From contig CAZUWR010000002.1 of NCBI GenBank assembly GCA_964624415.1, positions 12,454-76,453 of the forward strand: a stretch of DNA of 64,000 nt. Direction: 5' to 3'. Positions 95-15,769 of the stretch are shown here, one piece after another. Each line of letters begins with the position of its first letter. Within the stretch, counting starts at the first letter, position 1. The notes under the pieces are model-generated. The model did not search any database and was not told where the DNA came from. It worked only from the letters and a program-made list of their open reading frames with translations. Made by a program: the position numbers and the translations under genes. This stretch comes from an uncultured Bdellovibrionales bacterium (GTDB lineage: Bacteria; Patescibacteriota; Minisyncoccia; Moranbacterales; UBA1568).

Positions 95-123
95 ACACAG
101 GGGTAAATTTAATTAATTAATTC
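95..123 (-). repeat. Partial inverted copy of the island repeat family (ACACAGGGGT-AAATTT-TTAATTAATTAAT). It overlaps the 3' end of the P-loop NTPase gene; the TTAATTAATTAA palindrome encodes the C-terminus and stop codon.
   Basis: By eye it aligns to the reverse complement of 8975-9010 (…CCCCTATGCAAT… / TTAATTAATTAA) and of 11070-11100. Confidence 0.5.
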
Positions 124-1398
124 TTTAAGTAGCCCTAACGCTATGTTACTATACAGCCAAGATAGCTTATTTGGAATAATAAAGGTCTTACTCGGTCTTC
201 CAGGATCATCATTTTTTACTCTTATTTCTTCCAGTATGCCAAGCGCAACCATTTCTTTTGCAATCTTTAATGTATATGGCTTGGAATACCCTGATGCTTT
301 CATGAGAGCCTCTATTCCAATCTTTCCATTGTTTTTAATGGCTTCAAGCAAACAGATAGAACGGTTATTCGGCATCGAATCAATGGCTACTCTCAAAATA
401 ACGCCAATATCAGCCCAGTTTATTTTATCTCTCGCTTGGATAATCGCATGTCCGCGAGCAAGGTTATAAAGCCACTGATTTATGCGATCGGGCCGTTCAC
501 ACATCGAAGTTATTTGGTCACCTTGCTCTTGAGTGGTTCCGCGTGACATTGCAAGCATACTAGCTACGATACCAATTGATTCAAGTAATGTCTGGTCTTC
601 ATTTCCAGTTTCCCACTCAATGCCTTTAGGGTGGCTTTCCCAAAGTGTTTTTATAAAATCACCGGTAGCCTCCTTACATGAGCGCTCCTTTTCTCGAACT
701 GGGTTGCGTAATTGATTAGCAAGAGCGGTTGTTGTTTTTTCTGCTGAACGTATCTTTAAGAAGAACAACCGCTGACCAAGGTTCCCCATAGAGCGCCATA
801 CTGCGTTAGAAATCGGCGTAGACGCTCCAAGAAGCATAAAAGGGTATTCTCCTCTATACCCGCGTGATCCATGCACTCCACTGTTCGTTTCTAACCCGCG
901 ACCGTCCATTACCCGAGTTAGTATTCCAAGGAGCATATTGCGATCGTCCTCGCGTTTGGAAAAAACAGGAGCTAGATCGGGCAATATAAGTGTTCGATAC
1001 CGAATACGTGGCAGGAGATCTATTTTTCCCAATTCTGATTCTTTTTTCTTGGCAGAATGAGATACAAAGGAAGCTGGAGTAAAATTATCAACCTGAAGAG
1101 TAACCCCATCCAGATCTGAAAAAAACCCTAAAAGTGTCGTTTTTCCCGATGAAGGCACATCTACATATATAAGTCCGAATGGATTTTGAATATCTTTGAT
1201 TAATAGTTGCGCGATAACACTCAGTCCAATTTCTGTTGCAAGTGTAAGATCCGGAAAATTATCCACTAAAACACCTCGCCACTCATCAAATTGGATGGTT
1301 TTGGTTGGATGTAGCGGAGTGAAGCGGAGATTATTTTGAACTTCTTCAATTTGTTCTTTTTTCTTTGACAATGCTTTTGATAATGGCTTCATACTCAT
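109..1398 (-). CDS. P-loop NTPase with a C-terminal winged-helix-like domain. Possibly a mobile-element replication or regulatory ATPase.
   Basis: Walker A YVDVPSSGKTTLL, then a hydrophobic-Asp stretch (LILPDL). The C-terminal segment ICLLEAIKNNGKIGIEALMKASGYSKPYTLKIAKEMV looks like a wHTH. No specific family is recognised. Confidence 0.35.
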   Translation of the reverse strand: MSMKPLSKALSKKKEQIEEVQNNLRFTPLHPTKTIQFDEWRGVLVDNFPDLTLATEIGLSVIAQLLIKDIQNPFGLIYVDVPSSGKTTLLGFFSDLDGVTLQVDNFTPASFVSHSAKKKESELGKIDLLPRIRYRTLILPDLAPVFSKREDDRNMLLGILTRVMDGRGLETNSGVHGSRGYRGEYPFMLLGASTPISNAVWRSMGNLGQRLFFLKIRSAEKTTTALANQLRNPVREKERSCKEATGDFIKTLWESHPKGIEWETGNEDQTLLESIGIVASMLAMSRGTTQEQGDQITSMCERPDRINQWLYNLARGHAIIQARDKINWADIGVILRVAIDSMPNNRSICLLEAIKNNGKIGIEALMKASGYSKPYTLKIAKEMVALGILEEIRVKNDDPGRPSKTFIIPNKLSWLYSNIALGLLKELIN

Positions 1399-1576
1399 AT
1401 ATTAATAGTTGTAGGAATTAATTTAAGACTACTTTTTAATAGGCTTATAGATGGCGCGCACCAAATTTAATAGCTCCAAAGCACTCTCAAGAGCGACCTC
1501 AGGAGAAAGTTCTTCTCCAAGTTCATCTTTGACTAGTTCAATATACTCTTGTACCTGTGTTTCAGATAACATTGAT

Positions 1577-1822
1577 TTAGATATAAATCCGTGATTTTAA
1601 GTCTTTTTGAATAGCGATAAAACGCTTAGGCTCTACTAAGAGGTGCTCATCAAAAAATTGTTCGACGGTTTTACTTGATTCTTCTGTTTGAGAGAGCACA
1701 AAAACACATCTACGCGGCTCTCGTCGATCTATTTCAATTAATTGATGCCCAAAATACAGCAACACCGCGCACACGTTAAAATCACTTGTTCTCTGCATCA
1801 CCGCTTCTTCATGTATACTCAT
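1577..1822 (-). CDS. Hypothetical small protein
   Basis: 81-codon ORF, co-directional with neighbouring island genes. A hairpin (1831-1851) lies on its upstream side. No recognisable motif. Confidence 0.25.
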   Translation of the reverse strand: MSIHEEAVMQRTSDFNVCAVLLYFGHQLIEIDRREPRRCVFVLSQTEESSKTVEQFFDEHLLVEPKRFIAIQKDLKSRIYI

Positions 1823-1899
1823 AAAATAAAAACTTACGAATTAATCGTAAGTTCATTATAAGGACAATGTATTTTCAAAAAGTGACAACTTAGACCCCT

Positions 1900-2625
1900 T
1901 TATTTTGTCACCGTATTTTTGAGCCTTCTTCTCTTTTGTTTAAGTAAATCGGCAGACTTTTTATCCAAAATGCCCATCTCTTCGTATGATATGTGATCAA
2001 TGTTTTTGTCGCTAAGGTCATTATTAACCACACTCATCGTAATTTTATCGCTACACCCCTCATTAATCTTAACCGCCATTGCGTATTTCCATGGCGCTAA
2101 ATCCTTAATATCTTGCCTTGAGTGAAGTGTTGACTTCGCTTTTCCAAACAGCCTCTCTCTATCACTCTTATGGCACCGCCAAGCAAAAATAAGATCATCA
2201 AGAGTCGTGTTTTTATGAACCTCAAACGTAATGGTTTTTTCTTCTTCATTCACTTGAGCATGCGCATTGAACCGAACCGGTATCAAAACTCCGGTTAAAA
2301 CAAACCTTGTTAAAATAGGGTGCCATTCTTTTCCAAGTCCAAATGCTTTTTTCACCTGGTTTGTTTCTCTGAACAATGCAAGGAATGCTTCTGGATTAGC
2401 TTTCTCAAAGGATTTTGATTGTTGAATGGCCTCCTGCTCGATATTTTGAAACTCTTTTGGATGCTCATGCGCAACTATAGTTTCTCTATCCGATATCCCA
2501 TATTTCTTCCTCAAAGGAATAACATACGACATCAGATCTACCAATCTAGTCGCCACCAAAGCTTCCAAAAGGTAAATGGCATTCAAAACAACTTTTTCAT
2601 TATATACATCCATCTTCATTTTCAT
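1900..2625 (-). CDS. Hypothetical protein (241 aa), island gene
   Basis: Clean ORF with no recognisable domain. Confidence 0.4.
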   Translation of the reverse strand: MKMKMDVYNEKVVLNAIYLLEALVATRLVDLMSYVIPLRKKYGISDRETIVAHEHPKEFQNIEQEAIQQSKSFEKANPEAFLALFRETNQVKKAFGLGKEWHPILTRFVLTGVLIPVRFNAHAQVNEEEKTITFEVHKNTTLDDLIFAWRCHKSDRERLFGKAKSTLHSRQDIKDLAPWKYAMAVKINEGCSDKITMSVVNNDLSDKNIDHISYEEMGILDKKSADLLKQKRRRLKNTVTK

Positions 2626-2881
2626 TAATTTCCTCTATTATACCTTATTATTGATTTTAAGCAGGAAATGGTATACATTTAAGGTGGACTCACATTTACA
2701 ATTTTATCCTAATACTAGGCTTTTTTGCCTATTTTCATACCCATTTGTGTTTTGTAGCGGGCGCCTCCGATGCACGCAAATGGGAAAACCTTTAGGTAAT
2801 TCTGTAAGTGTGAGTCCCGTCGGGGCGTCCACTTTAGGTGAATAGACTACGCTTCGACGACTTAATCTTTAAGTCGTTTTT

Positions 2882-4180
2882 ATGTTAAAGAGAATAGTAA
2901 TTATTTCATTGTTTTTATTTTTTCCTCTATCCTCCTATGCCTCTGATAATAGGCTTTTAGATGGGTTTGATAAATGGGAAGCGGAGCAGAATAAAAAAGT
3001 AACAGTAATCCAACCTAGCAATGTTGAACAAAATAGTGTACAGCCCATACTGTATAGGAATGATGATTATAAATTCAGAATAAAATTCCCAGATGGATGG
3101 GAAATGAAGGATGGTGATGGACAGCATGTGGTTAAAAAGGCTGTAAAAGATAATAGCACCATCCTTATCCTTGTGAGGGAGTTTTCGGATTTCTTAGGTG
3201 ATGCTGGAAAAGACTCATTATCGCCGAAGGACATATCTGATCTTAATTCTGCCGAGTCCAACGATCTTTCTGATGAAGAAATCAATGTATTTCTAGAATC
3301 AATAGCAACCGGACAGCTCGAGGCTTTTCCTGGAAGCACCGTTCTAGAAAAAGGTATCCGCTATATTGATAATAGAAAGGCGGTTTACGTCAAGACGAAT
3401 CAGGTGTATAAGGTGCAAAATATGCAAGTAGAAGGTGTCTCGATAAACTATTTTACTCTCCATAAAGGAAAACTCTATCAAATTGGAGGATTTTATCCAA
3501 CAATACCCATAAATGAAACAGCTAAAGAAAGCATCATAAATACATCATTATCAACTTTTGTCTTTGAGAATTGGGATGATACAAAAAATGCTGTAAATGA
3601 AATAACATCCAATTCTGCTAATGAGGCACTTGGAGATTCGTATGGTAAAAACCTGAATGGGTTAGGGTTATCATTAACTATCATTTTAAGCATTCTTTTC
3701 ACTTGGGGATTGGGATTAATTATCCCTCTATTATTGCGATTTGTTTTTCTAAAAAGGCATCTTTCTGTTGAAATGGCATTATCTGTAGTTGCAGCCGTTT
3801 ACTTTATTCAATTAATAGGTTCTCTTGCGTTGGATAGCAAAAGTAAAAGCCATAGCGCATTACTTTTAGTTGCTTTTATATCCTATAGAATCATGAGGAA
3901 AGGCTCTATAGATAAGGAATCATCAAGAGAAATCCCTCATCCAAAAGTTGAATCCATAAAATATACCGCTAATAAAGAGCTGAGTTTATGGCATTCAAGA
4001 CTTGCGAATGTTATTTTAGTGCTTGTTGTACCAGTAGGCTGGATAGCATTTTTTGTTAGTGATGGGGGTGAATCTCGATATATTCCAATACTACCGCTGC
4101 TTATCGCATTGTCTGATCTCGCTGTATGGATTTTGTATAAAGCTATTCTTTACGTTATTTACGGATATCAAAAAAGGTAG
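2882..4180 (+). CDS. Secreted/membrane hypothetical protein
   Basis: N-terminal signal peptide (MLKRIVIISLFLFFPLSSYAS), a central soluble region and several C-terminal TM helices. Confidence 0.5.
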   Translation: MLKRIVIISLFLFFPLSSYASDNRLLDGFDKWEAEQNKKVTVIQPSNVEQNSVQPILYRNDDYKFRIKFPDGWEMKDGDGQHVVKKAVKDNSTILILVREFSDFLGDAGKDSLSPKDISDLNSAESNDLSDEEINVFLESIATGQLEAFPGSTVLEKGIRYIDNRKAVYVKTNQVYKVQNMQVEGVSINYFTLHKGKLYQIGGFYPTIPINETAKESIINTSLSTFVFENWDDTKNAVNEITSNSANEALGDSYGKNLNGLGLSLTIILSILFTWGLGLIIPLLLRFVFLKRHLSVEMALSVVAAVYFIQLIGSLALDSKSKSHSALLLVAFISYRIMRKGSIDKESSREIPHPKVESIKYTANKELSLWHSRLANVILVLVVPVGWIAFFVSDGGESRYIPILPLLIALSDLAVWILYKAILYVIYGYQKR

Positions 4181-4232
4181 TTTTAAAAAATGCTAATGCT
4201 AGCATGCTTAATTTTATTAAATCTACAATGAT

Positions 4233-4832
4233 ATGTTCGGTATTTTTCTGCAAAAAAACAAAGTGGTGTTACTTACGGCTATCATAGCATCCGTAATAAC
4301 CGCAGGCGCTTCATTGAGCTATGCCGCTATAAAGAACAAGAAAGAGGCTTCTGATCGAAAAATTGAAGCGCTACAGAAATCAATAGAGGACTTACAGATG
4401 AAAAATGAGCAATCTGCTAAGGCTGAAGAGCCTGAAAAGATAAGTATTGAAGCTGTTCAGCAAGCCGAAACATCCGAGATTGCTAGTCAAAAGAAAGTAA
4501 CTGGCAACAAAATTCTGGAATCCACCTCAGAAAAAACTCAACCAAAAGATACTGTTAAAGACGAACCGCTCGTAAAGTGCCTCTCTTATGATGGTAGCGT
4601 AGCTGAATTGAGCGCAAATGATTGTGAAATATTGAAGCAATCTAATGCAGTATTCGAAAAGATTGTAGATGAATACAAAAAATGCGTTTCTGACGCGGAA
4701 AACAGATTCCAGGATCGCCTAAACACGGGGTATGATTCATCAATGGTTACTGCTTACAATAAAACAGCGCAAGCATGTGCACTTGAAAGGAATAACCAAG
4801 TCAACAAATTTCAAAAAAACTTTAAAAAATAA
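4233..4832 (+). CDS. Membrane-anchored coiled-coil hypothetical protein
   Basis: N-terminal TM segment (VVLLTAIIASVITAGASLSYAAI) followed by a charged coiled-coil-like region. Confidence 0.45.
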   Translation: MFGIFLQKNKVVLLTAIIASVITAGASLSYAAIKNKKEASDRKIEALQKSIEDLQMKNEQSAKAEEPEKISIEAVQQAETSEIASQKKVTGNKILESTSEKTQPKDTVKDEPLVKCLSYDGSVAELSANDCEILKQSNAVFEKIVDEYKKCVSDAENRFQDRLNTGYDSSMVTAYNKTAQACALERNNQVNKFQKNFKK

Positions 4833-4927: not shown

Positions 4928-7900
4928 TCAATCCCAACGAAAATCGCGTATATCTGTATCAATATCCTCACGCTTGGCATCGCTTTCATAATTTTCCGCC
5001 ATTTTTCGAAGCATTCTCGCGGCACGAGGCCACTTCACTTTCAGAGCATCACCCATTTTTTTGTACTTCTCTGCCAGAGCTCTTTCTTGCTCTCCTCCGG
5101 CATCCAGGGATCGCGAAACCACTCCTCGGCTATTGAACAAGCCGGTTTGAATATGACTCTCTATGACTTCGCTTTTAAGTTTCTCAAGGAGATCCCTCAC
5201 AGCCTCATGAGGCCAGTGTCCGTCACTGCCAATGGGAGCGTTGGCAAGCATAAGACCAATTTGAATATCTCCCCCGGTCACATACTTTTTTGAAGCACAT
5301 TCTTCTCTTGCTGCCTCAATCCACTTCGAGAATTCTTTTTCGTTGAAAGATCCGTCCTTTTGGACTCCCGGAACAAGGTGCCAGGAATAGAGTACCTCCC
5401 GGGCGTTCTTCGCCAAAAAAGGAGAGGTCTCCCTCTTTTTCTTCGTTGGACTGGAAATTTGATCATCTTGCTTATAGACATAAGAAATAAGCTCAACAAA
5501 GAATAAATAGTCTTTTTGGAGGAGGCGATGAACAGCTAATGATGAACCGTGTTTTTCAAAACTATGGAAAAATGCTGCAAAAGGCCACTCTAACTTCATT
5601 ATTTCCTCCAGAGAAAGCTCATCTCTCTCCTGGAGCTGTCTAAATATATTTCCAAGATGATACTCATCCAAGGAGCCTCTTCTAAAATCCTTATGTTTAG
5701 AATCAACCAGTAAGACATCCTGCAGTAATCGCTGGAGCAGAGTACTTGGCAGAGATATTCTATGATCGCCGGCTATAGAGAGCGCGGAAAAGGGTCTTTT
5801 GGCGTCGAGGAGTTTTTCAACTGCAAAAGCCGTGTCTTCGATACTATCACCCTGAAAATATCCCGTAGCGTGATCCCAGTACGCGGCTTCTACTTCACTA
5901 CCACGAGCACCCACAAGAGACCACGTGGCTCTGCTTGAAGGTAAGCCTGAGTACAACAGCGCCTCGCGATCTGCAGTGTAGTTCCCTTTGGCCTTTATTC
6001 TTTTGGCCTGCTTCTCGATCCATTTTTGATCAGTGGCTTGTATTCTCCCTTGGGCATAACTTTCAAGCAGCATCGGATGTTTATTGGAGACACCGAGTAT
6101 TGCGTCCAGGACAGCACTGTCTTCTTTTTCATCTCGGATGATTTTTCCAAGTGCCTGCCCGAAAACACCCTGATATGAAATTTCACAGGCGTATTTGATG
6201 ATCTTTTTCAGCGTAACCTTATCCAAAATCTCACGCATTGCTTTCTCTCTGGCTTTGGTGATCGCCACGGTTTTTTCATCGTATTCCTTTGAATCTCCCT
6301 CTGGCAGTTCTGGCCAGGGATTATTTACTAGCCACCCCAGTCTTTCTAATGTATCTTTCGGGGTAATTTTTTCCAGTACTCGATTCAGTGCAGGAAGAAA
6401 CTTTTTTATTTCTCCATCGCCGTAGGTGTTGATCCAGTGCAGCGTGTCCCGGGTATTTTTAAAAAGCTCCGAAACTTTCTCTTTTGGAAGACTTTTGAGG
6501 CTTTCTTTTTCAATTACCTCCAGAAGATGTTCTCGTATTTCTATGGGAAGTCGGATAAAGTCATCCATCGAAGTTGCCAAGTTTTCCTCCGCAGATGCAA
6601 CATCAATCATTCGCGGGAATAAACCTTTGCTATATTCCTGGTCTTCTGCTCCATTTTCTCGCTCAAGCCCGCGTCTTGGATTGCCGGTCTCTCGCCACCG
6701 GAAGCGGTGTGATTCACTGAAGCTTTCGGGACTGAAATAGCCTTTAGCAAAATCCCAAGTTAACTTCGGGTTCTGTGATACAAGTTTTTCAAATACCCCA
6801 ATTCGCTCTTGGGGCGTGGAACAAGTTTGTGGATATGCTGGCCGGAAAATATCCTTCAGGCTATTCAGAGGCCGATTACTATAACCTCTGCCCTGATCAA
6901 TCTGAGCCAGCTTTAAAAGGATGTCTGCAGAATCCCCTAAATACTCTGAGTCCCAAGCTGTGGATTCAAGAGCCCAAAGCAATCCTGAATGCTTACACTC
7001 GCCGAAAATACCACCTTCGTCCTTCATTAATTCTTTAAATACATCTGGTCGAGTTTCTATAGCCCTCGCCAGACCCTGCAGAAAAGCGTCCGGAGCCGCC
7101 TCAGCGAGAAGGGGGGTCATATCTGAGAGTGACGCCCAGACCTCCCAAGTACTGGCTCTGGTTAAAACTTCCTCTACGATTCTATCGGCGAATGCCTGTG
7201 AGGAGGAGATATGAGGGCAATGATCACTGTGAACTGCTAAGAGTACAAGAGATTCGACCAGTCCGGTTTGTATCCACCCAGAATACGGGCTGACTTTTCC
7301 ATACACAGCTGCAGCCCAACGCTTCTCTACTGCTAGACGGTACTTCGGATCAGTCTTGGTAAGTATCGAAAGAAGGGACGTCTTAAAAAGTTTCAGAAAG
7401 CTTTCGCTAAGATGCGAAGCAAGAAGTTCCCAGGTATCGAGCGGTGCTTTAATCATCCATACGCTTCCCGATTTTCTGATAGGCGTGTCATCCACCCTAA
7501 GAAGCTTTTCTAGTTTCTTGGAATATTCCTCATATTTTAATCCAGAAAGAGTTTCCAATATACGACGATCTCCCTCCTTGTTTTCATCCCAAGAGCCCGC
7601 GAACAATGCAGGAAAGAGAAGATCTGTTTTATCGGGAGCTGCCCACGCAGGTTGGCTTGCGCTTGTGGAAGAAAGCTGGCGATGAAGAACCGGGATGCTT
7701 CGTCCAAAATCTCTGGCCAGTTTCTGAGACTGCACTCCAGACACTCCGTTTTCTAAAAACTTCTTTTCTATTACGTTCCGTTTTGGCCGTGAAAGCCTTA
7801 TTACTTTGCCGTGCAGATCAATTGATTGTGCGTCTGCTGTTAGGAAGACGTGATGGCCATTCTTAACGGCGAGATCAGCAGCGTTTCTACAATCAGCAGG

Positions 7901-8707
7901 CGCGACAATTATGAGATTTTTAAAGTTCGCACTACAGTCTTTAAATTGTTGAATATTTTCTACTACTACACATCGAGAAAATGCTCGAAGTTTGTCTGTT
8001 TCAGAAAGCTCAGTAAGAGCAGCGTACAAAAATGCGCTAGGCTCTTCTGGAGAATCCCCCTGCACTTCTAACAACTCAGGAATACCCACTACCCATTGAT
8101 GGATACGGGCAACTTCGATTGCTCGACCACCAATTACAACGGCCGGGGCGATTTCCGGACTGGTTCCTGCTGCCCACTCTTCCCAGAAACCTTCAATGTC
8201 CTGAATGCCTCCAGAGAGCCCTTTAATTTGGCGAGCTAGCCACAGAGCTACTGCGGGTGTAGCTGAAAGCCAAGACACAAGCTTATCAACAGCAATAACT
8301 TTCACATCAGCCCACTCATAAGTAGCCTTCTTCTTGGCTTCCCAGTTCGTCCTGTCTTTCCAGGGGCGTGGAGTAACAAAAATGAAAGTCGTACTTTGAG
8401 GATCTATCCCCAATGGATTTTTTGTCCGTTTCGTGTAATCATCCTCAGCCTTTTTCCCTGGATTAGCTCCCGTCCCGATTTCCCAGACCGACTCTCCTGC
8501 AGGAAAAAAGCGCGAGCCAGAAGAGGATCGCAGATGGCCATCCCAGCCTCCGATTGCCGTGTTGTCACCACTCGGGAAGTCTATCTCTTCGATAGATGCT
8601 GAGCTGGCCAATATCAAACGACTAAGAAGCTGAGGCAGAGTAGTCTCGCAGTCTTTTTTCTTCCCTGTCAGCCAGGTTTTTATGTCACCAGAATCTATCC
8701 AAATCAT
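4928..8707 (-). CDS. Very large (1259 aa) hypothetical protein with no recognisable NTPase or nuclease motif. Candidate defense/accessory function.
   Basis: Uninterrupted 3.78-kb ORF. I found no Walker A, DEAD/DExH, HxH or YxDD motifs by eye. The C-terminal third is predicted helical/repeat-like. Confidence 0.6.
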   Translation of the reverse strand: MIWIDSGDIKTWLTGKKKDCETTLPQLLSRLILASSASIEEIDFPSGDNTAIGGWDGHLRSSSGSRFFPAGESVWEIGTGANPGKKAEDDYTKRTKNPLGIDPQSTTFIFVTPRPWKDRTNWEAKKKATYEWADVKVIAVDKLVSWLSATPAVALWLARQIKGLSGGIQDIEGFWEEWAAGTSPEIAPAVVIGGRAIEVARIHQWVVGIPELLEVQGDSPEEPSAFLYAALTELSETDKLRAFSRCVVVENIQQFKDCSANFKNLIIVAPADCRNAADLAVKNGHHVFLTADAQSIDLHGKVIRLSRPKRNVIEKKFLENGVSGVQSQKLARDFGRSIPVLHRQLSSTSASQPAWAAPDKTDLLFPALFAGSWDENKEGDRRILETLSGLKYEEYSKKLEKLLRVDDTPIRKSGSVWMIKAPLDTWELLASHLSESFLKLFKTSLLSILTKTDPKYRLAVEKRWAAAVYGKVSPYSGWIQTGLVESLVLLAVHSDHCPHISSSQAFADRIVEEVLTRASTWEVWASLSDMTPLLAEAAPDAFLQGLARAIETRPDVFKELMKDEGGIFGECKHSGLLWALESTAWDSEYLGDSADILLKLAQIDQGRGYSNRPLNSLKDIFRPAYPQTCSTPQERIGVFEKLVSQNPKLTWDFAKGYFSPESFSESHRFRWRETGNPRRGLERENGAEDQEYSKGLFPRMIDVASAEENLATSMDDFIRLPIEIREHLLEVIEKESLKSLPKEKVSELFKNTRDTLHWINTYGDGEIKKFLPALNRVLEKITPKDTLERLGWLVNNPWPELPEGDSKEYDEKTVAITKAREKAMREILDKVTLKKIIKYACEISYQGVFGQALGKIIRDEKEDSAVLDAILGVSNKHPMLLESYAQGRIQATDQKWIEKQAKRIKAKGNYTADREALLYSGLPSSRATWSLVGARGSEVEAAYWDHATGYFQGDSIEDTAFAVEKLLDAKRPFSALSIAGDHRISLPSTLLQRLLQDVLLVDSKHKDFRRGSLDEYHLGNIFRQLQERDELSLEEIMKLEWPFAAFFHSFEKHGSSLAVHRLLQKDYLFFVELISYVYKQDDQISSPTKKKRETSPFLAKNAREVLYSWHLVPGVQKDGSFNEKEFSKWIEAAREECASKKYVTGGDIQIGLMLANAPIGSDGHWPHEAVRDLLEKLKSEVIESHIQTGLFNSRGVVSRSLDAGGEQERALAEKYKKMGDALKVKWPRAARMLRKMAENYESDAKREDIDTDIRDFRWD

Positions 8708-8791
8708 AATCTTTTTCTTTTAAAGATACCTCTTTCCACGTTTAAGTAATTATCCTAAGGAAAGAACTATGTGTCAAAATTGCCTTATGCT

Positions 8792-8821
8792 CATCAAACC
8801 AGAACCAACCGATCTCCAAAG
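8792..8821 (+). repeat. Partial extra copy of the 5' arm of the island repeat (TCATCAAACCAGAACCAACC…)
   Basis: About 80% match to 8944-8973. Confidence 0.3.
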
Positions 8822-8940
8822 ACTTCAACTTTTCTATATCATCCAAACCCCAAAAGTATATTTCATGCCCATTGATCATAGTGAGAAGGTATTTGATCTC
8901 TTTTACTGAAATATAAAGCAAAAAGATGGTTTGAATTTGC

Positions 8941-9090
8941 ATATCATCGAACCAGAACTAACCTACTTCTCATTAATTAATTAACAAATTCAACCCCTAT
9001 GCAATACCCCCCAGTAAAATGGTTCGAACTTCATTGACCATCGAGATCCAAGAATGGAAACGGTCTCGAAAGAAGCTATTTTTGTTTTAT
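8941..9090 (+). repeat. Island repeat copy A, immediately downstream of the RT stop codon
   Basis: ATATCATCGAACCAGAACTAACC…TTAATTAATTAAC…CCCCTATG…GGTTCGAACTTCATTGACCATCGAG…CTATTTTTGTTTTATTTAAG. It aligns at about 75% identity with 11037-11200. Confidence 0.6.
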
Positions 9091-9095
9091 TTAAG

Positions 9096-10067
9096 CTACT
9101 TTCTATATTTTTCAACATAGTTTTTATAACGATTCATGGCTTTCTTTCTAGATGAAAATGTTTTTCTATCCTGAGAAGATGGGTTGGCATTAAGAAGGTC
9201 TTTAATCTTCTTTTTCTTCGCTCTTGCTTTTATTCCTACAGCCAAACTGTCGCGACGTAAGTCAATCCCGACATAATGCATCCCGTCCCTATGAGATCGG
9301 ATACTTGTCTTTTTTTCATTTATTCTGAGTGGTTGATTAGGATCAGCCTCAGCCAATAATTTCACAATTTCATTTCTCAGCTCTTCCATTGCTTTCTTGA
9401 AAACATGACTAGCCGTGATACCAATATCATCGACATAAATAGCTATTCTTGGGTCATGTCCTTTGAGCCTCTTTAAAACAAGATTTCGCAACTTCAGGAA
9501 TAAGTTAAGATTGCACCAAACGGCTAGTCGCGGGGATGTAGCAAAGCCCCTTGCAATGGTCATGATGGGTCCACCAGAGCCCTTGGGGCCCAAAGGGACA
9601 CAACAGAGCCTGGTGAGGATTTTAGAAGCTCTGGGGCTACATCCGCACATTCGTTTGAAAAAGAACTCGACCCTGGAGCTCTCAACTTGCTCGAAAAATC
9701 GTCTTAGGTCAAGTTTTAGCATATGCCGCCTCATCTTTGATCCCAAAAGCTCCCTGGCCGCCATCACATGATCTCTTTTTTTAAGACCTCCGAAAATAAA
9801 AAATGGCACCAAATTATCATGAGGCGCCAAAACCAATGCATTTATTTTTCGATGTAGTTTCTTAAGATTCTTCCCTGAAGCATTTCGAATATACTTGCCT
9901 TTTTTCAACTCAGAACTAGCGCTATCTTTCCAGTATGAATCGAGATTTAAAAGACAGTCATTTATCAAATCAAGGGCTTCCTTCGAAGGAAAGTCTTTGT
10001 GGCTAATATGCTTCGCAAGCTCATTTTTACTTTTTATGAAAAGCTTCGGATAAATTGACTTTGACAT
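9096..10067 (-). CDS. Reverse transcriptase, retron-like (fingers-palm only, 323 aa)
   Basis: RT motifs in order: FIFGGLKKRDHVMAARELL…LKLDLRRFFEQV (motifs 2/A), ARGFATSPRLAVWCNLNL (retron-type PQGxxxSPxLxN), IAIYVDDIGI (YxDD catalytic box), INEKKTSI (motif 6), HYVGIDL (retron VTG-like). There is no RNase H, maturase or endonuclease domain. Confidence 0.85.
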   Translation of the reverse strand: MSKSIYPKLFIKSKNELAKHISHKDFPSKEALDLINDCLLNLDSYWKDSASSELKKGKYIRNASGKNLKKLHRKINALVLAPHDNLVPFFIFGGLKKRDHVMAARELLGSKMRRHMLKLDLRRFFEQVESSRVEFFFKRMCGCSPRASKILTRLCCVPLGPKGSGGPIMTIARGFATSPRLAVWCNLNLFLKLRNLVLKRLKGHDPRIAIYVDDIGITASHVFKKAMEELRNEIVKLLAEADPNQPLRINEKKTSIRSHRDGMHYVGIDLRRDSLAVGIKARAKKKKIKDLLNANPSSQDRKTFSSRKKAMNRYKNYVEKYRK

Positions 10068-10383
10068 ACTTTTTCAACCGCTTAGCTCGGTTATAAATAA
10101 GAAGATCTTGCATCTTTTCCCCCCATTCCACCAGAAGTTTTTCCACACCACTTACTCGACCCTTACTTAACTCGGTATCCATGAAAAGAAATGGGGTGAT
10201 AGATGCTGGATGAACATCCATTCGATCGGCAAGTTTCAATAAAAACCCCTTAGAGACTTCTTTCTGTCCAGTCTCAATCATCGCAATAAGGACTGCCGAC
10301 ACATTCAAAGCAGAGGCAAACTCCGCCTGAGTCAAACCAGATTCACTCCTGATTTTCTTAATAAGTTCCGAAAAAGTATACAT
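10027..10383 (-). CDS. XRE-family helix-turn-helix protein whose 3' end overlaps the RT start by 41 nt
   Basis: IRSESGLTQAEFASALNVSAVLIAMIETGQKEVSKGFLLKLADRMDV is a classic XRE/Cro-type HTH. Its stop codon (10027-10029) lies inside the RT ORF (RT start codon at 10065-10067). Confidence 0.75.
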   Translation of the reverse strand: MYTFSELIKKIRSESGLTQAEFASALNVSAVLIAMIETGQKEVSKGFLLKLADRMDVHPASITPFLFMDTELSKGRVSGVEKLLVEWGEKMQDLLIYNRAKRLKKYVKVNLSEAFHKK

Positions 10384-11036: not shown

Positions 11037-11200
11037 ATATCATCGAACCAAAACCAACCTATTTTTTATTAATTAACACATTCAGCCCCTGTGTAACACT
11101 CTCCATTTCCCCCATATTTTCCACCAAAAGAGTTCGAACTTCGTTGACTACCGAGCTCACATATCAAAAAAGTGACTATCTAAGTCTCTTTTTGTTAATT
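11037..11200 (+). repeat. Island repeat copy B, upstream of the DUF4238-like gene
   Basis: ATATCATCGAACCAAAACCAACC…TTAATTAACAC…CCCCTGTG…AGTTCGAACTTCGTTGACTACCGAG…CTCTTTTTGTTAATTTGCAG. Confidence 0.6.
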
Positions 11201-11342: not shown

Positions 11343-12350
11343 ATGGCTCAAGGAAAACCAAAAGATCATTATGTGCCACAGTTTTATCTAGACGCTTTTG
11401 CTATAGAGGGTCCGGGAAAGAAACGATCTCATATATACCAATATATGGACAAGCAAGTAGTTTCTTCAAGAATAAGTGATGTTGCTAGTGAAAAAGATTA
11501 CTACACCTTTATACTAGATGAGGAAGATAAGAATACTGTCACTAGAGATGTTGATGATTTTTTTACAAATATAGAGGCTTCAGCAGCACCAGTGATTCAG
11601 CGGATTATAAAAGAAGAAAGTTTGGACATTACTAAAGAAGAAAGGGGATGGGTAGCTGTCTTTTTTTCGACATTAGCTGTACGTACACCAGGCTTTCTTA
11701 ATCTAGCGCAAGCACTACATGGTACTGCAATAAAAGAAATTGGTATAGCTGGAGCAGTGAATAAAGAAGTTCTAGCTGAGGATGTAAGGCGAGCAGGAAT
11801 GACAATTGATGAAAAACAACTTAATAACCTTCATAATTTTGTTATGAAGGGGGACTACGATATTACTTTTTCTAAAAAATCAAAGTCGTATTTTGTTGCT
11901 ACAGGGCTTAAAGACGCAAAAAATCTATCCAATATGTATTTTGAAAAGTTCTGGCATCTACTATTGGTAAATGGAAAAACTCCACTCTTAACCTCAGATA
12001 ATCCGGTTTCTCTTTATAGACCAAAATACATACCGGCCATATATAATGCTGGTTATGGTAATGGGGTCATAGTGATACCTCTTTCACCTAATGTAGCCAT
12101 ATTAATGAGAGAAAAACCTCTTCGAAAAGAAATTTCTCATATTAACGAATATATGGTAAGACGTCTCAATCAGAATACAATCCGTTTCTCTAATGAGTTT
12201 GTTTTTGGAAATCTACACATTCCCCAACTTGAGAAGCTTTTTAATAAAACACCAAAAAAGGCACACCAAAAGGTAAAAGCAACAAGAATAAAATGGACTC
12301 CATACACAGTTATGAGTACGGGCGTTATCCCGGAAGAATTTATAAAATAA
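11343..12350 (+). CDS. DUF4238-family-like protein (N-terminal HYVPQFYL signature)
   Basis: The N-terminus KDHYVPQFYLDAFA matches the HxVPxxYLxxF hallmark I associate with DUF4238 proteins (the family appears near defense/abortive-infection genes). 335 aa. Confidence 0.5.
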   Translation: MAQGKPKDHYVPQFYLDAFAIEGPGKKRSHIYQYMDKQVVSSRISDVASEKDYYTFILDEEDKNTVTRDVDDFFTNIEASAAPVIQRIIKEESLDITKEERGWVAVFFSTLAVRTPGFLNLAQALHGTAIKEIGIAGAVNKEVLAEDVRRAGMTIDEKQLNNLHNFVMKGDYDITFSKKSKSYFVATGLKDAKNLSNMYFEKFWHLLLVNGKTPLLTSDNPVSLYRPKYIPAIYNAGYGNGVIVIPLSPNVAILMREKPLRKEISHINEYMVRRLNQNTIRFSNEFVFGNLHIPQLEKLFNKTPKKAHQKVKATRIKWTPYTVMSTGVIPEEFIK

Positions 12351-13459: not shown

Positions 13460-14662
13460 ATGTCCGCATTCACATTTTTTCTGCGTTCGCATATCAAAGC
13501 GCTTCTTATCCTGCTCATTTTAGTGATCGCAGGTGTGTTTGCGGTACAGAAAAACATCCAGCGCTCATTCATCCCCGACATCCCGCTCCCGGAGCATCCT
13601 GGGCAAGGGCTCAGCGCCAGTCCTTTCGGTCCCATAGAAGACGTCCCGCAAAAAGCGCCTGTTCCCGCGCCGCCTTCGATGGAACGCATGAAGCAGCAAG
13701 GGTGCGTCGCCGACGGATTCCTCTCGGATTATGGAGAGAATGCCGATAGTATGGCAAAACTCATCAGCCGCTCCAACTGCTACTACCTGCACAGATCGCT
13801 CGAGACCTGGCTTCGTCCGCCGGATTTCGAGTTGGCGAAAAAAATCAAAGCGCGTGTCACCAAGCAAAATATGGTCTACGGGATGTTTATCGCGGAAGCC
13901 ATCGATACCAAGGCCAACTACTATTACCCACCCGAGCAGCGTGATTTTGAATTTTCAAAAATGTGCCGTGATGGAAGCAAAAACAAGTGGGGAGAACACA
14001 CCTGCCAGCCGTCTTTCGAAAAGCGTGAGTATATGCTCTATGTCCAGTACATCACCAAACAGGCTATCGATATGGGTATCCAGAGCTTTATGTTCGGTCA
14101 GGTCTTCCTTCAGGATGCCAATGATCCGGATCGATCACTCCTCAAAACCGTCATGGACAGTATGCGCGGCTATGCAGAATCCCAAAACGTTCAAATCGTC
14201 ATCGGCGCACAAACGAATGACATCGAGGACGAGAGCTATCTACGGATGTTCGACTACATCGAAGGCGGGGTCGGACTTCATACCGATGGCACCATCGAAC
14301 AAGGTGCTTGCTTTTCACGCTGGTGGAAACAAGAGGGTGACTGGTGCTGGGCGCTCCTTTGGAATGAAAAATTCGCGTCCAAGGCAAACAACGTCTTTAT
14401 TCACCTCGACTGGAGTGGCCGATCAGGCGATGATATGAGCACCTTTGCGCGTATGTCTGCAGAAGACCGCGCTCAGGCGATGCGGAACCTACACACCTAC
14501 TTCACCGATCGTCATATCGGCTTCTTCCTCCCGTTTCTCGCGCCCTTGCCGGTCAATAATGGCAGTTGCTACGGCCCAAAAAAGCGCTTTTACTCGCCGG
14601 ATAATAAATACAGCTGCCAGGACGAAAACGCCTTCAATACCATCCTTTCCGGCAAAAAGTAA
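13460..14662 (+). CDS. Membrane-anchored hypothetical protein (400 aa), GC-rich
   Basis: N-terminal TM anchor (ALLILLILVIAGVFAV) and a large Cys/Trp-containing extracytoplasmic domain. Its base composition is atypical for the window. Confidence 0.55.
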   Translation: MSAFTFFLRSHIKALLILLILVIAGVFAVQKNIQRSFIPDIPLPEHPGQGLSASPFGPIEDVPQKAPVPAPPSMERMKQQGCVADGFLSDYGENADSMAKLISRSNCYYLHRSLETWLRPPDFELAKKIKARVTKQNMVYGMFIAEAIDTKANYYYPPEQRDFEFSKMCRDGSKNKWGEHTCQPSFEKREYMLYVQYITKQAIDMGIQSFMFGQVFLQDANDPDRSLLKTVMDSMRGYAESQNVQIVIGAQTNDIEDESYLRMFDYIEGGVGLHTDGTIEQGACFSRWWKQEGDWCWALLWNEKFASKANNVFIHLDWSGRSGDDMSTFARMSAEDRAQAMRNLHTYFTDRHIGFFLPFLAPLPVNNGSCYGPKKRFYSPDNKYSCQDENAFNTILSGKK

Positions 14663-15603: not shown

Positions 15604-15677
15604 GGTCCGATGGCCGAGTGGTGAGGCAAGAGTCTGCAAAACTCTGTACAGCGGTTCAATTCCGCTTCGGACCTCAC
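15604..15677 (+). tRNA. tRNA-Cys (GCA)
   Basis: GGTCCGA…TCGGACC acceptor stem, anticodon loop CTGCAAA, T-arm AGCGGTTCAATTCCGCT, U73 discriminator. Confidence 0.85.
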
Positions 15678-15682
15678 ATATT

Positions 15683-15769
15683 GCTGCAGTGGTGGAATTG
15701 GTATACACGGCAGACTTAAAATCTGCTGCCTTAAACGGCTTGAGGGTTCGAGTCCCTCCCGCAGCACAG
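15683..15769 (+). tRNA. tRNA-Leu (TAA), type II with a long variable arm
   Basis: Anticodon stem-loop GCAGA-CTTAAAA-TCTGC, long variable arm, T-arm GAGGGTTCGAGTCCCTC. Confidence 0.8.

Follow-up and report, generated by a model that had tools for sequence, protein, structure and literature searches.

The window analyzed here, a 64,000-nucleotide stretch of contig CAZUWR010000002.1 (assembly GCA_964624415.1), carries on its minus strand a coding sequence of 1259 codons plus a stop at positions 4928..8707. On the basis of the open reading frame (ORF) list, the translation, full-length homologues, and a PHROG match, its product is assigned to the family phrog_18693, and in its predicted structure it is Avs-like. 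From the N terminus, the protein is predicted to consist of a PD-(D/E)xK-like alpha/beta domain (residues 1 to 165; 8213..8707), a module that resembles the NOD, or nucleotide-binding oligomerization domain (residues 166 to 420; 7448..8212), and an all-helical alpha-solenoid (residues 421 to 1259; 4931..7447), all encoded on the minus strand. In both the ORF list and the translation, the frame is unbroken from its ATG, bearing out the first-pass annotation of this DNA, which had described an uninterrupted 3.78-kb minus-strand ORF of 1259 amino acids (aa). A stop-free run of 1259 codons has, by estimate, a chance of ~1e-32 (at ~44% GC, stops are expected at ~5.6% of codons), and the ORF at 4928-8707 is a real gene.

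Predicted architecture of the 1259-residue protein

Scans of the protein against Pfam, NCBIfam, and PADLOC returned zero families at E values of ≤1, and a sequence search of the PDB gave only noise. When the PDB was searched with profiles of the whole protein, of the nuclease-like domain, and of the NOD-like module, nothing significant was found and no Avs chains were retrieved. Across these four resources, neither Walker A/B, HNH, or HEPN models nor any other family model matched the protein. The PADLOC copy was v2.0.0 (2023), which holds models of candidate and published defense systems; Avs6 to Avs24, named after 2023, lie outside this sequence comparison. A literature search on the phrog_18693 identifier or on P-loop-less STAND defense proteins found no description of the family. 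The statement in the first-pass annotation that the protein carries no recognizable motifs holds to this extent, in that no family model matched; it requires qualification at the level of structure, where AlphaFold2 and conservation point to a PD-(D/E)xK-like fold with D56, E76, and K86.

AlphaFold2 was run on two overlapping pieces, residues 1 to 420 and 401 to 1259, with 51-sequence alignments. This structure prediction, which had been proposed with the first annotation, revealed a three-part, Avs-like architecture. The model of residues 1 to 420 had a predicted local distance difference test score (pLDDT) of 91.3 and a predicted template-modeling score (pTM) of 0.85. Within it, residues 1 to 165 follow the topology H-H-E-E-E-H-E-H-E (H, helix; E, strand), which corresponds to the alpha-beta-beta-beta-alpha-beta core of restriction-endonuclease-like domains. 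The residues conserved throughout the family comprise E26, within the long first helix; D56 (GWDG), immediately ahead of strand 2; E76 (WExG), within strand 3; K86, D90, and R94 (GKAxxDYxKR), on the helix after strand 3; and a TPRxW motif after strand 4. These residues coincide with where the PD-(D/E)xK fold places its active site. The conserved lysine is displaced, with K86 lying in the following helix and not at the canonical +2 position of (D/E)xK. Because the lysine is off this position, we infer nuclease activity rather than assert it. No nuclease-family sequence match was obtained for residues 1 to 165 in Pfam or in the PDB profile search. From the AlphaFold2 topology, the conservation, and the Foldseek results, this domain is presumed to be a nuclease effector.

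The NOD-like module was delimited using AlphaFold2 secondary structure, Foldseek against the PDB, the BFVD library, and a module profile. It is made up of a P-loop-NTPase-fold alpha/beta domain (residues ~166 to 305), a helical lid (~310 to 344), and a winged helix (~358 to 420; H-E-H-H-E-E). In the model, this is the fold order of STAND and AAA+ proteins, in which an alpha/beta nucleotide-binding domain (NBD) is followed by the helical lid and then by the winged helix. When residues 1 to 420 were compared with the PDB using Foldseek, Avs4 (8dgf) ranked first (E value, 3e-8; 436 alignment columns for the 420-residue query) and Avs3 (8dgc) second (1.6e-6). These two led the 19 matches with E values of ≤1e-3, the rest of which were AAA+ ATPases (RFC, ORC, ATAD2, Sec18/NSF, and TRIP13), and Apaf-1 and plant NRC came next, with E values of 2e-3 to 6e-3. 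The BFVD viral structure library gave only generic AAA+/RFC matches and no close viral homologue.

The Walker A position within this module was located from column counts over 150 family representatives and from an alignment of distant relatives. It falls at residues 217 to 226 (GDSPEEPSAF; 8030..8059, minus strand), a loop and helix start that follow the first strand (LLEVQ) of the alpha/beta domain. Among the representatives the position reads [AG]-[DE]-[ST]-x-[DE]-E-A-h-A-F, and 148 of the 150 have E222. Not one of the 150 has GK[ST] in register at this position, and the family motif is without the lysine or threonine. The acidic motif also takes the place of Walker A in distant relatives from plasmids, Verrucomicrobia, Dehalococcoidia, and phage collections. 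No conserved acidic pair follows the would-be Walker B strand (LIIVAP) in the 150 representatives or in the distant relatives. Two further residues, H285 and R343, are near-invariant (149/150 and 148/150). Because the acidic motif, E222, H285, and R343 are all near-invariant, we judge that the P-loop site is not merely decayed and that it appears instead to have been rebuilt and to be under selection. We speculate that the acidic motif (E222, together with H285 and R343) could be a built-in latch that replaces ADP/ATP.

Residues 401 to 1259 were modeled as helices only (pLDDT, 87.3). Helical repeats had earlier been suggested for the C-terminal third of the protein; the C-terminal part is indeed all-helical in the model, and it extends over two-thirds of the protein (residues 421 to 1259), not one third. 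Foldseek matched this region to generic HEAT/ARM solenoids only (E values of ~3e-4; TM-scores of 0.1 to 0.25), including ATR, CAND1, importins, FANCD2/FANCI, condensin, and cohesin-loader HEAT proteins. A charged C-terminal segment (residues ~1190 to 1259) is strongly conserved, and family conservation is even along the entire length of the protein, with a mean column identity of 66% and very few indels. Considering the model, the Foldseek matches, and this conservation, the ~840-residue solenoid is presumed to be the ligand sensor.

The order nuclease-like domain, NOD, solenoid was found in 101 of the 150 representatives, and in 36 of the 150 it is joined by an N-terminal extension of ~90 aa that precedes the nuclease-like domain. 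Two longer relatives, P0217 (1754 aa) and P0191 (1474 aa), align to the window protein only from residue ~160 to 167 to the C terminus. In the head of P0217, residues 300 to 640 match PNP_UDP_1, and in PADLOC this region matched the "Effector PN-superfamily" model (E value, 1e-23) and the candidate PDC-M60C (E value, 6e-33). The head of P0191 (residues 1 to 373), ~370 aa without an assigned family, has a hydrophobic start and, by eye, is possibly membrane spanning. These alignments show that the nuclease head is swapped in rare relatives, with a boundary at residue ~165. The three parts of the Avs architecture (effector, NOD, and helical-repeat sensor) are present in the window protein according to AlphaFold2 and Foldseek, and, as modeled, they follow one another as they do in antiviral STAND (Avs) proteins.

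Family distribution and mobile context

At least 199 homologues of the 1259-aa protein were found in a search of ~5.8 billion proteins. The best 120 of these are almost all 1255 to 1279 aa long, with 100% query coverage and 45 to 54% identity; all of them are labeled "hypothetical," and none has a Pfam domain. Residues 1 to 1256 matched positions 1 to 1254 of the 1258-position phrog_18693 profile (PHROGs v4; E value, 6.1e-159), and this end-to-end match makes phrog_18693 the same family as the window protein. The profile is unannotated and adds only that (pro)phage genomes encode members. A profile of residues 166 to 420, run against 1.84 billion representatives clustered at 50% identity, retrieved 2768 proteins at E values of ≤1e-3 and 674 at ≤1e-30. 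The label "orphan," given to the protein in the first-pass annotation, does not survive these searches.

A pattern-based scan of GTDB, covering one genome per species (185,579 representatives), yielded 28 loci, a number that is a lower bound. The loci belong to Omnitrophota, Margulisiibacteriota, four candidate phyla radiation (CPR) lineages, Elusimicrobia, Gammaproteobacteria, Terriglobia, Aminicenantes, Dehalococcoidia, Verrucomicrobia, and deltaproteobacteria; the family is spread patchily over ~12 phyla, at ~50% identity. Full-length relatives at a greater distance (25 to 31% identity) were found on plasmids or chromids (24 records) of Rhizobium, Bradyrhizobium, Shewanella, Cupriavidus, Ralstonia, Arthrobacter, and Adhaeribacter. 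Cultured carriers include Rhizobium tropici CIAT 899, Shewanella baltica OS195, Adhaeribacter radiodurans, Cupriavidus, and Ralstonia. The homologues of the first three are WP_004118204, WP_012197948, and WP_182411419, respectively. The family to which the 1259-aa protein belongs is large, has no name, and is horizontally mobile. Some homologues are disrupted, being split, truncated, or unannotated (our loci L023, 9998-13795; L028, 10230-13794; L031, 10514-13302; and L027, 9977-11956), and the copy in Cupriavidus metallidurans CH34 (NC_007974.2, 2311018-2314785) is disrupted too. These homologues are probably pseudogenes. Disrupted copies are the typical pattern for costly, dispensable genes.

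For the comparison of neighborhoods, ORFs were called in the 28 loci and in the window and clustered all against all. No gene other than the homologue itself was widely common to these neighborhoods, and the conserved gene neighborhood that the earlier annotation had suggested looking for was not found. The genes abutting the start codon differ in each case examined (DUF2188, R.HinP1I, EngA GTPase, and S_4TM), and the small ORFs directly upstream of homologues show no relationship to one another. Among the genes ending a few bases before a homologue start are those for an S_4TM (SMODS-associated 4TM) effector and an R.HinP1I endonuclease (L016, 1207-2103; L012, 9207-9992), and these two upstream genes place the family directly within defense gene clusters. 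The commonest neighbor is a large serine recombinase, found within ~8 kb in 10 of the 28 loci; tyrosine integrases and ParB-methyltransferases also recur. A PADLOC scan of 150 neighbor proteins, which is descriptive only and without a background, identified mainly DNA methyltransferases. Four further homologues were examined in Pfam-annotated contexts: the first stands alone, inserted between priA and the aro operon, the second lies with a serine recombinase and a type I restriction-modification system, the third with a serine recombinase, a LexA-like repressor, and two restriction-modification systems, and the fourth with an RHS toxin, a recombinase, and a relaxase. The R. tropici copy is set among DUF2357, RT-SLATT, and Shedu genes.

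In three other assemblies whose 1259-aa protein is identical, a 534-aa large serine recombinase (Resolvase, Recombinase, and Zn_ribbon_recom) adjoins rplS at a place just beyond window position 1 (L001, 17451-19055; L002, 11955-13559; and L003, 8881-10485). This recombinase is the left boundary of the island that holds the window gene. On the right, the limit is suggested by the tRNA genes at 15604-15766 and by what follows them, the window to the right of ~15.6 kb being occupied by housekeeping genes (tRNAs, DHH, GyrA, S1, FtsH, and PNPase).

Five island ORFs of 199 to 432 aa, located at 109-1398 (-), 1900-2625 (-), 2882-4180 (+), 4233-4832 (+), and 13460-14662 (+), gave no significant match in Pfam, PADLOC, or PHROG, the 199-aa ORF having a marginal match to phrog_23103 (E value, 0.006). 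The four ORFs at 109-4832 accompany the giant gene in each of the three other assemblies bearing it. In one of these (L002), a gene for a 193-aa HD protein stands in place of the DUF4238-HSP20-3D genes of the window. A DUF4238 gene (PADLOC DUF4238-Pers) lies near family members on three unrelated replicons. One is the window (11343-12350); the others are an Adhaeribacter plasmid (L034, 11999-13240), where 210 nt separate it from the homologue upstream, and a Bradyrhizobium plasmid (L037, 16390-17277). BLAST clustering found no DUF4238 gene in the 28 GTDB loci, and its proximity may reflect mere shared membership of defense islands.

Proposed function and alternative explanations

We read the 1259-aa protein as a stand-alone, nucleotide-independent Avs/NLR-like sensor-nuclease, carried as cargo on a serine-recombinase integrative island, and give this model-based reading a probability of roughly 60%. 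Because the NOD is without Walker A/B in any branch of the family, its switching would be nucleotide independent and ligand driven. In the mechanism we propose by analogy with Avs3 and Avs4, the C-terminal solenoid of ~840 residues would bind a conserved molecule of the invader, most probably a phage protein. Binding would free the NOD-like module (NBD, lid, and winged helix) from autoinhibition, the protein would oligomerize, and the N-terminal PD-(D/E)xK-like domains would assemble into an active nuclease, whereupon DNA would be destroyed and the infection aborted. The nuclease activity, ligand sensing, oligomerization, and antiphage function in this scheme are what we infer from the predicted structure, the conservation, and the genomic context. 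The first-pass annotation had also suspected an antiphage sensor or effector, an idea that the Avs-like architecture, the head swapping, and the mobile and restriction-modification contexts favor, while the link to reverse transcriptase (RT) that formed part of it found no support. The ORF holds interest on grounds other than those of that annotation: the protein is no orphan, it has no tie to the RT, and its fold is recognizable and Avs-like by AlphaFold2 and Foldseek.

Several observations weigh against this reading. The similarity to Avs proteins is structural only. Foldseek TM-scores for residues 1 to 420 are low (~0.3), which we attribute to the query holding several domains, and neither the Avs models of PADLOC nor any Pfam family or PDB sequence was matched, even with profiles. 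For a sensor, the solenoid is unusually conserved, and its fold matches are generic. The association with defense islands is descriptive, made without a genomic background comparison. Finally, canonical Avs activity reportedly requires an intact Walker A motif, and Avs3 and Avs4 are said to bind ATP; a NOD without a P-loop might not oligomerize as a canonical Avs does.

A broader proposal is more tentative, and we hold it to be possible rather than probable: the family would form a large clade of NLR/Avs-like receptors (~2,700 50%-identity clusters, from CPR to Actinomycetota) that dispense wholly with nucleotides, the P-loop having been rebuilt as a latch and the ligand alone firing a noncanonical PD-(D/E)xK nuclease. 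STAND/NLR receptors are defined by a nucleotide-driven switch; if the proposal is true, this type of receptor can work without nucleotides, and the family would offer a tractable bacterial model for ligand-only activation. The extreme cross-phylum conservation would then imply that the family senses one universal invader feature. Since it goes undetected by the Pfam, NCBIfam, and PADLOC copies searched, the family is probably missing from defense censuses that are based on such models, including those of CPR and uncultured lineages.

Members of the family could instead be regulators or maintenance factors of mobile elements, either STAND-like DNA-binding proteins of the MalT or AfsR type or addiction or exclusion factors of plasmids or integrative and conjugative elements. 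This account draws on the ~90-aa N-terminal extension, in which a helix-turn-helix (HTH) domain (Pfam HTH_3 or HTH_17) was detected in 5/5 proteins scanned, and on RefSeq, where HTH-bearing relatives are named "helix-turn-helix transcriptional regulator" or "HigA family antitoxin." The location of the family on plasmids and integrative elements agrees with it, as does the high conservation of the sensor, which an arms race does not obviously predict. However, the window protein and most family members have no HTH, and where one occurs it is added ahead of the nuclease-like domain and does not replace it. The extension resembles restriction-modification control proteins and CapH (PADLOC), which are autoregulators of defense genes, and fits autoregulation of a defense gene. 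Rhizobium and Shewanella have HTH_3 there and Arthrobacter has HTH_17, and the extension was therefore gained more than once. The PNP-type defense effector found at the head of one relative also ill suits a transcription factor, and we regard a regulatory or maintenance role as unlikely. A possible counterpart of the extension was seen at locus L006, where a 70-aa ORF (3571-3783, plus strand) that overlaps the homologue start at 3764 resembles, by eye, an excisionase/MerR-type HTH of the HTH_17 kind; it may be the split form of the HTH fusion in the Arthrobacter plasmid protein.

Another explanation would make the protein a nonimmune nuclease or scaffold in the DNA repair, recombination, or replication of its element, with the solenoid as scaffold and the NOD as a dead spacer. 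The presence of ATR, FANCD2/FANCI, condensin, and cohesin-loader HEAT proteins among the solenoid matches is in keeping with such a role, and so are the nuclease-like head and the very high end-to-end conservation. Yet those matches are of the generic kind described above, and repair and replication genes do not co-occur with the family, whose spread is patchy and mobile and in which pseudogenes are frequent. The swap to a PNP effector points to toxicity and not to repair. We consider this explanation improbable.

A further explanation would make the protein an effector or accessory partner of the adjacent RT cassette, with which the first-pass annotation had associated it, either as a retron effector or as the target of a diversity-generating retroelement (DGR). 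The RT gene does lie upstream of the ORF on the same strand, ~390 nt away, and retrons usually possess an effector gene. The RT gene (9096-10067) and the overlapping HTH gene (10027-10383), both on the minus strand, nevertheless matched PADLOC RT_VI (E value, 4.5e-29) and HTH_VI (2e-12), and the partner in a type VI retron is the HTH protein; RT and HTH are a complete, self-contained type VI retron. No RT was found at the position of the retron in the 28 genomic loci, in six plasmid or phage-collection loci, or in four further contigs; a group II intron RT in two plasmid loci and the RT-SLATT pair in R. tropici each lie several kb away. We reject the role of type VI retron effector, RT_VI and HTH_VI being already paired and no RT being kept at this position in the other loci. 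A DGR target is likewise rejected, there being no template/variable repeat pair between the RT region and the ORF, whose sole shared repeat is 26 nt at 77% identity. The giant gene is also preceded by a promoter-like site of its own, of the sigma-70 type (TTGACA-17 nt-GATAAT; 8749..8777, minus strand; 11/12 matches by consensus scan and sequence reading), ~40 nt upstream of its ATG, although such sites are no more numerous in the region than in shuffled sequence, and this one is a consensus match only. Adjacent direct repeats at 8960-9048 and 11052-11158 (54 nt at 76% identity and 38 nt at 79%) bracket the ~2.1-kb retron cassette alone; they could have been left by insertion or could belong to the retron noncoding RNA. 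A partnership with the RT cassette is, in our estimate, highly improbable.

Between the RT gene and the giant gene lies a 66-aa ORF (8742-8942, minus strand) with weak matches to terminase large subunit (phrog_3717; E value, 9e-5) and Pfam Terminase_3 and with a Walker-B-like "GWFWFDE" sequence. It looks like a prophage gene remnant, and the promoter-like site of the giant gene falls inside it.

A housekeeping role as a multidomain factor in cell envelope or other biogenesis, which together with universal synteny had been named as the outcome that would speak against the original proposal, can be dismissed, since nothing was found in its favor and the distribution is patchy (only 28 of 185,579 species representatives in the pattern-based scan, a lower bound, over ~12 phyla), with variable neighborhoods, locations on plasmids and recombinase islands, and, in one case, a gene inserted by itself between priA and the aro operon.

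Comparison with known systems

With PD-(D/E)xK nucleases and effector domains of the Mrr/Cap4 type, the N-terminal domain, as predicted, shares the core topology, an Asp before strand 2, and a Glu in strand 3, and its place at the effector end of an Avs-like protein adds to the likeness to Mrr/Cap4-type effectors. It differs from PD-(D/E)xK nucleases in having K86 in the next helix instead of at +2 and in having no Pfam or PDB sequence match.

Inactive STAND modules have been described in conflict systems under the names iSTAND and iSTAND2 (Kaur et al. 2020, 2021; PMC7159879, PMC8195603). Like the window family, these combine an inactive STAND module with variable N-terminal effector or signaling domains and predicted invader sensing. 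In contrast, iSTAND modules are parts of three-gene MoxR-vWA systems and are enriched in multicellular bacteria, whereas the window family is stand-alone; no MoxR or vWA gene was present in any annotated neighborhood of its members. As iSTAND is described, the restriction endonuclease-like head and the solenoid tail also set the window family apart, and no sequence relationship to iSTAND came to light in the defense and family models searched.

The wider Avs set comprises Avs1 to Avs24 (PMC13581612). Degenerate Walker motifs are reported there for KpAvs8, of the PD-lambda-4 family (Extended Data Fig. 11 legend), which sets a precedent for a sensor of the Avs type probably without ATPase activity. 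In Avs8, one homologue is degenerate and EcAvs8 retains the motifs, whereas every examined branch of the window family is without them. A different conserved acidic motif fills the site in the window family, and the two show no sequence relationship, PADLOC having given no match.

Avs3 and Avs4 are the best structural matches to the window protein. Unlike them, the window family is without Walker A and B throughout and has no detectable sequence similarity to them, and the ~50% identity of its sensor across phyla is a further difference. As in the window protein, a single large polypeptide in Avs3 and Avs4 joins a nuclease-type effector, a NOD of NBD, lid, and winged helix, and a helical-repeat sensor. 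Both Avs3/Avs4 and the window family show swapping of the N-terminal effector, and both are found in mobile-element and defense-island contexts.

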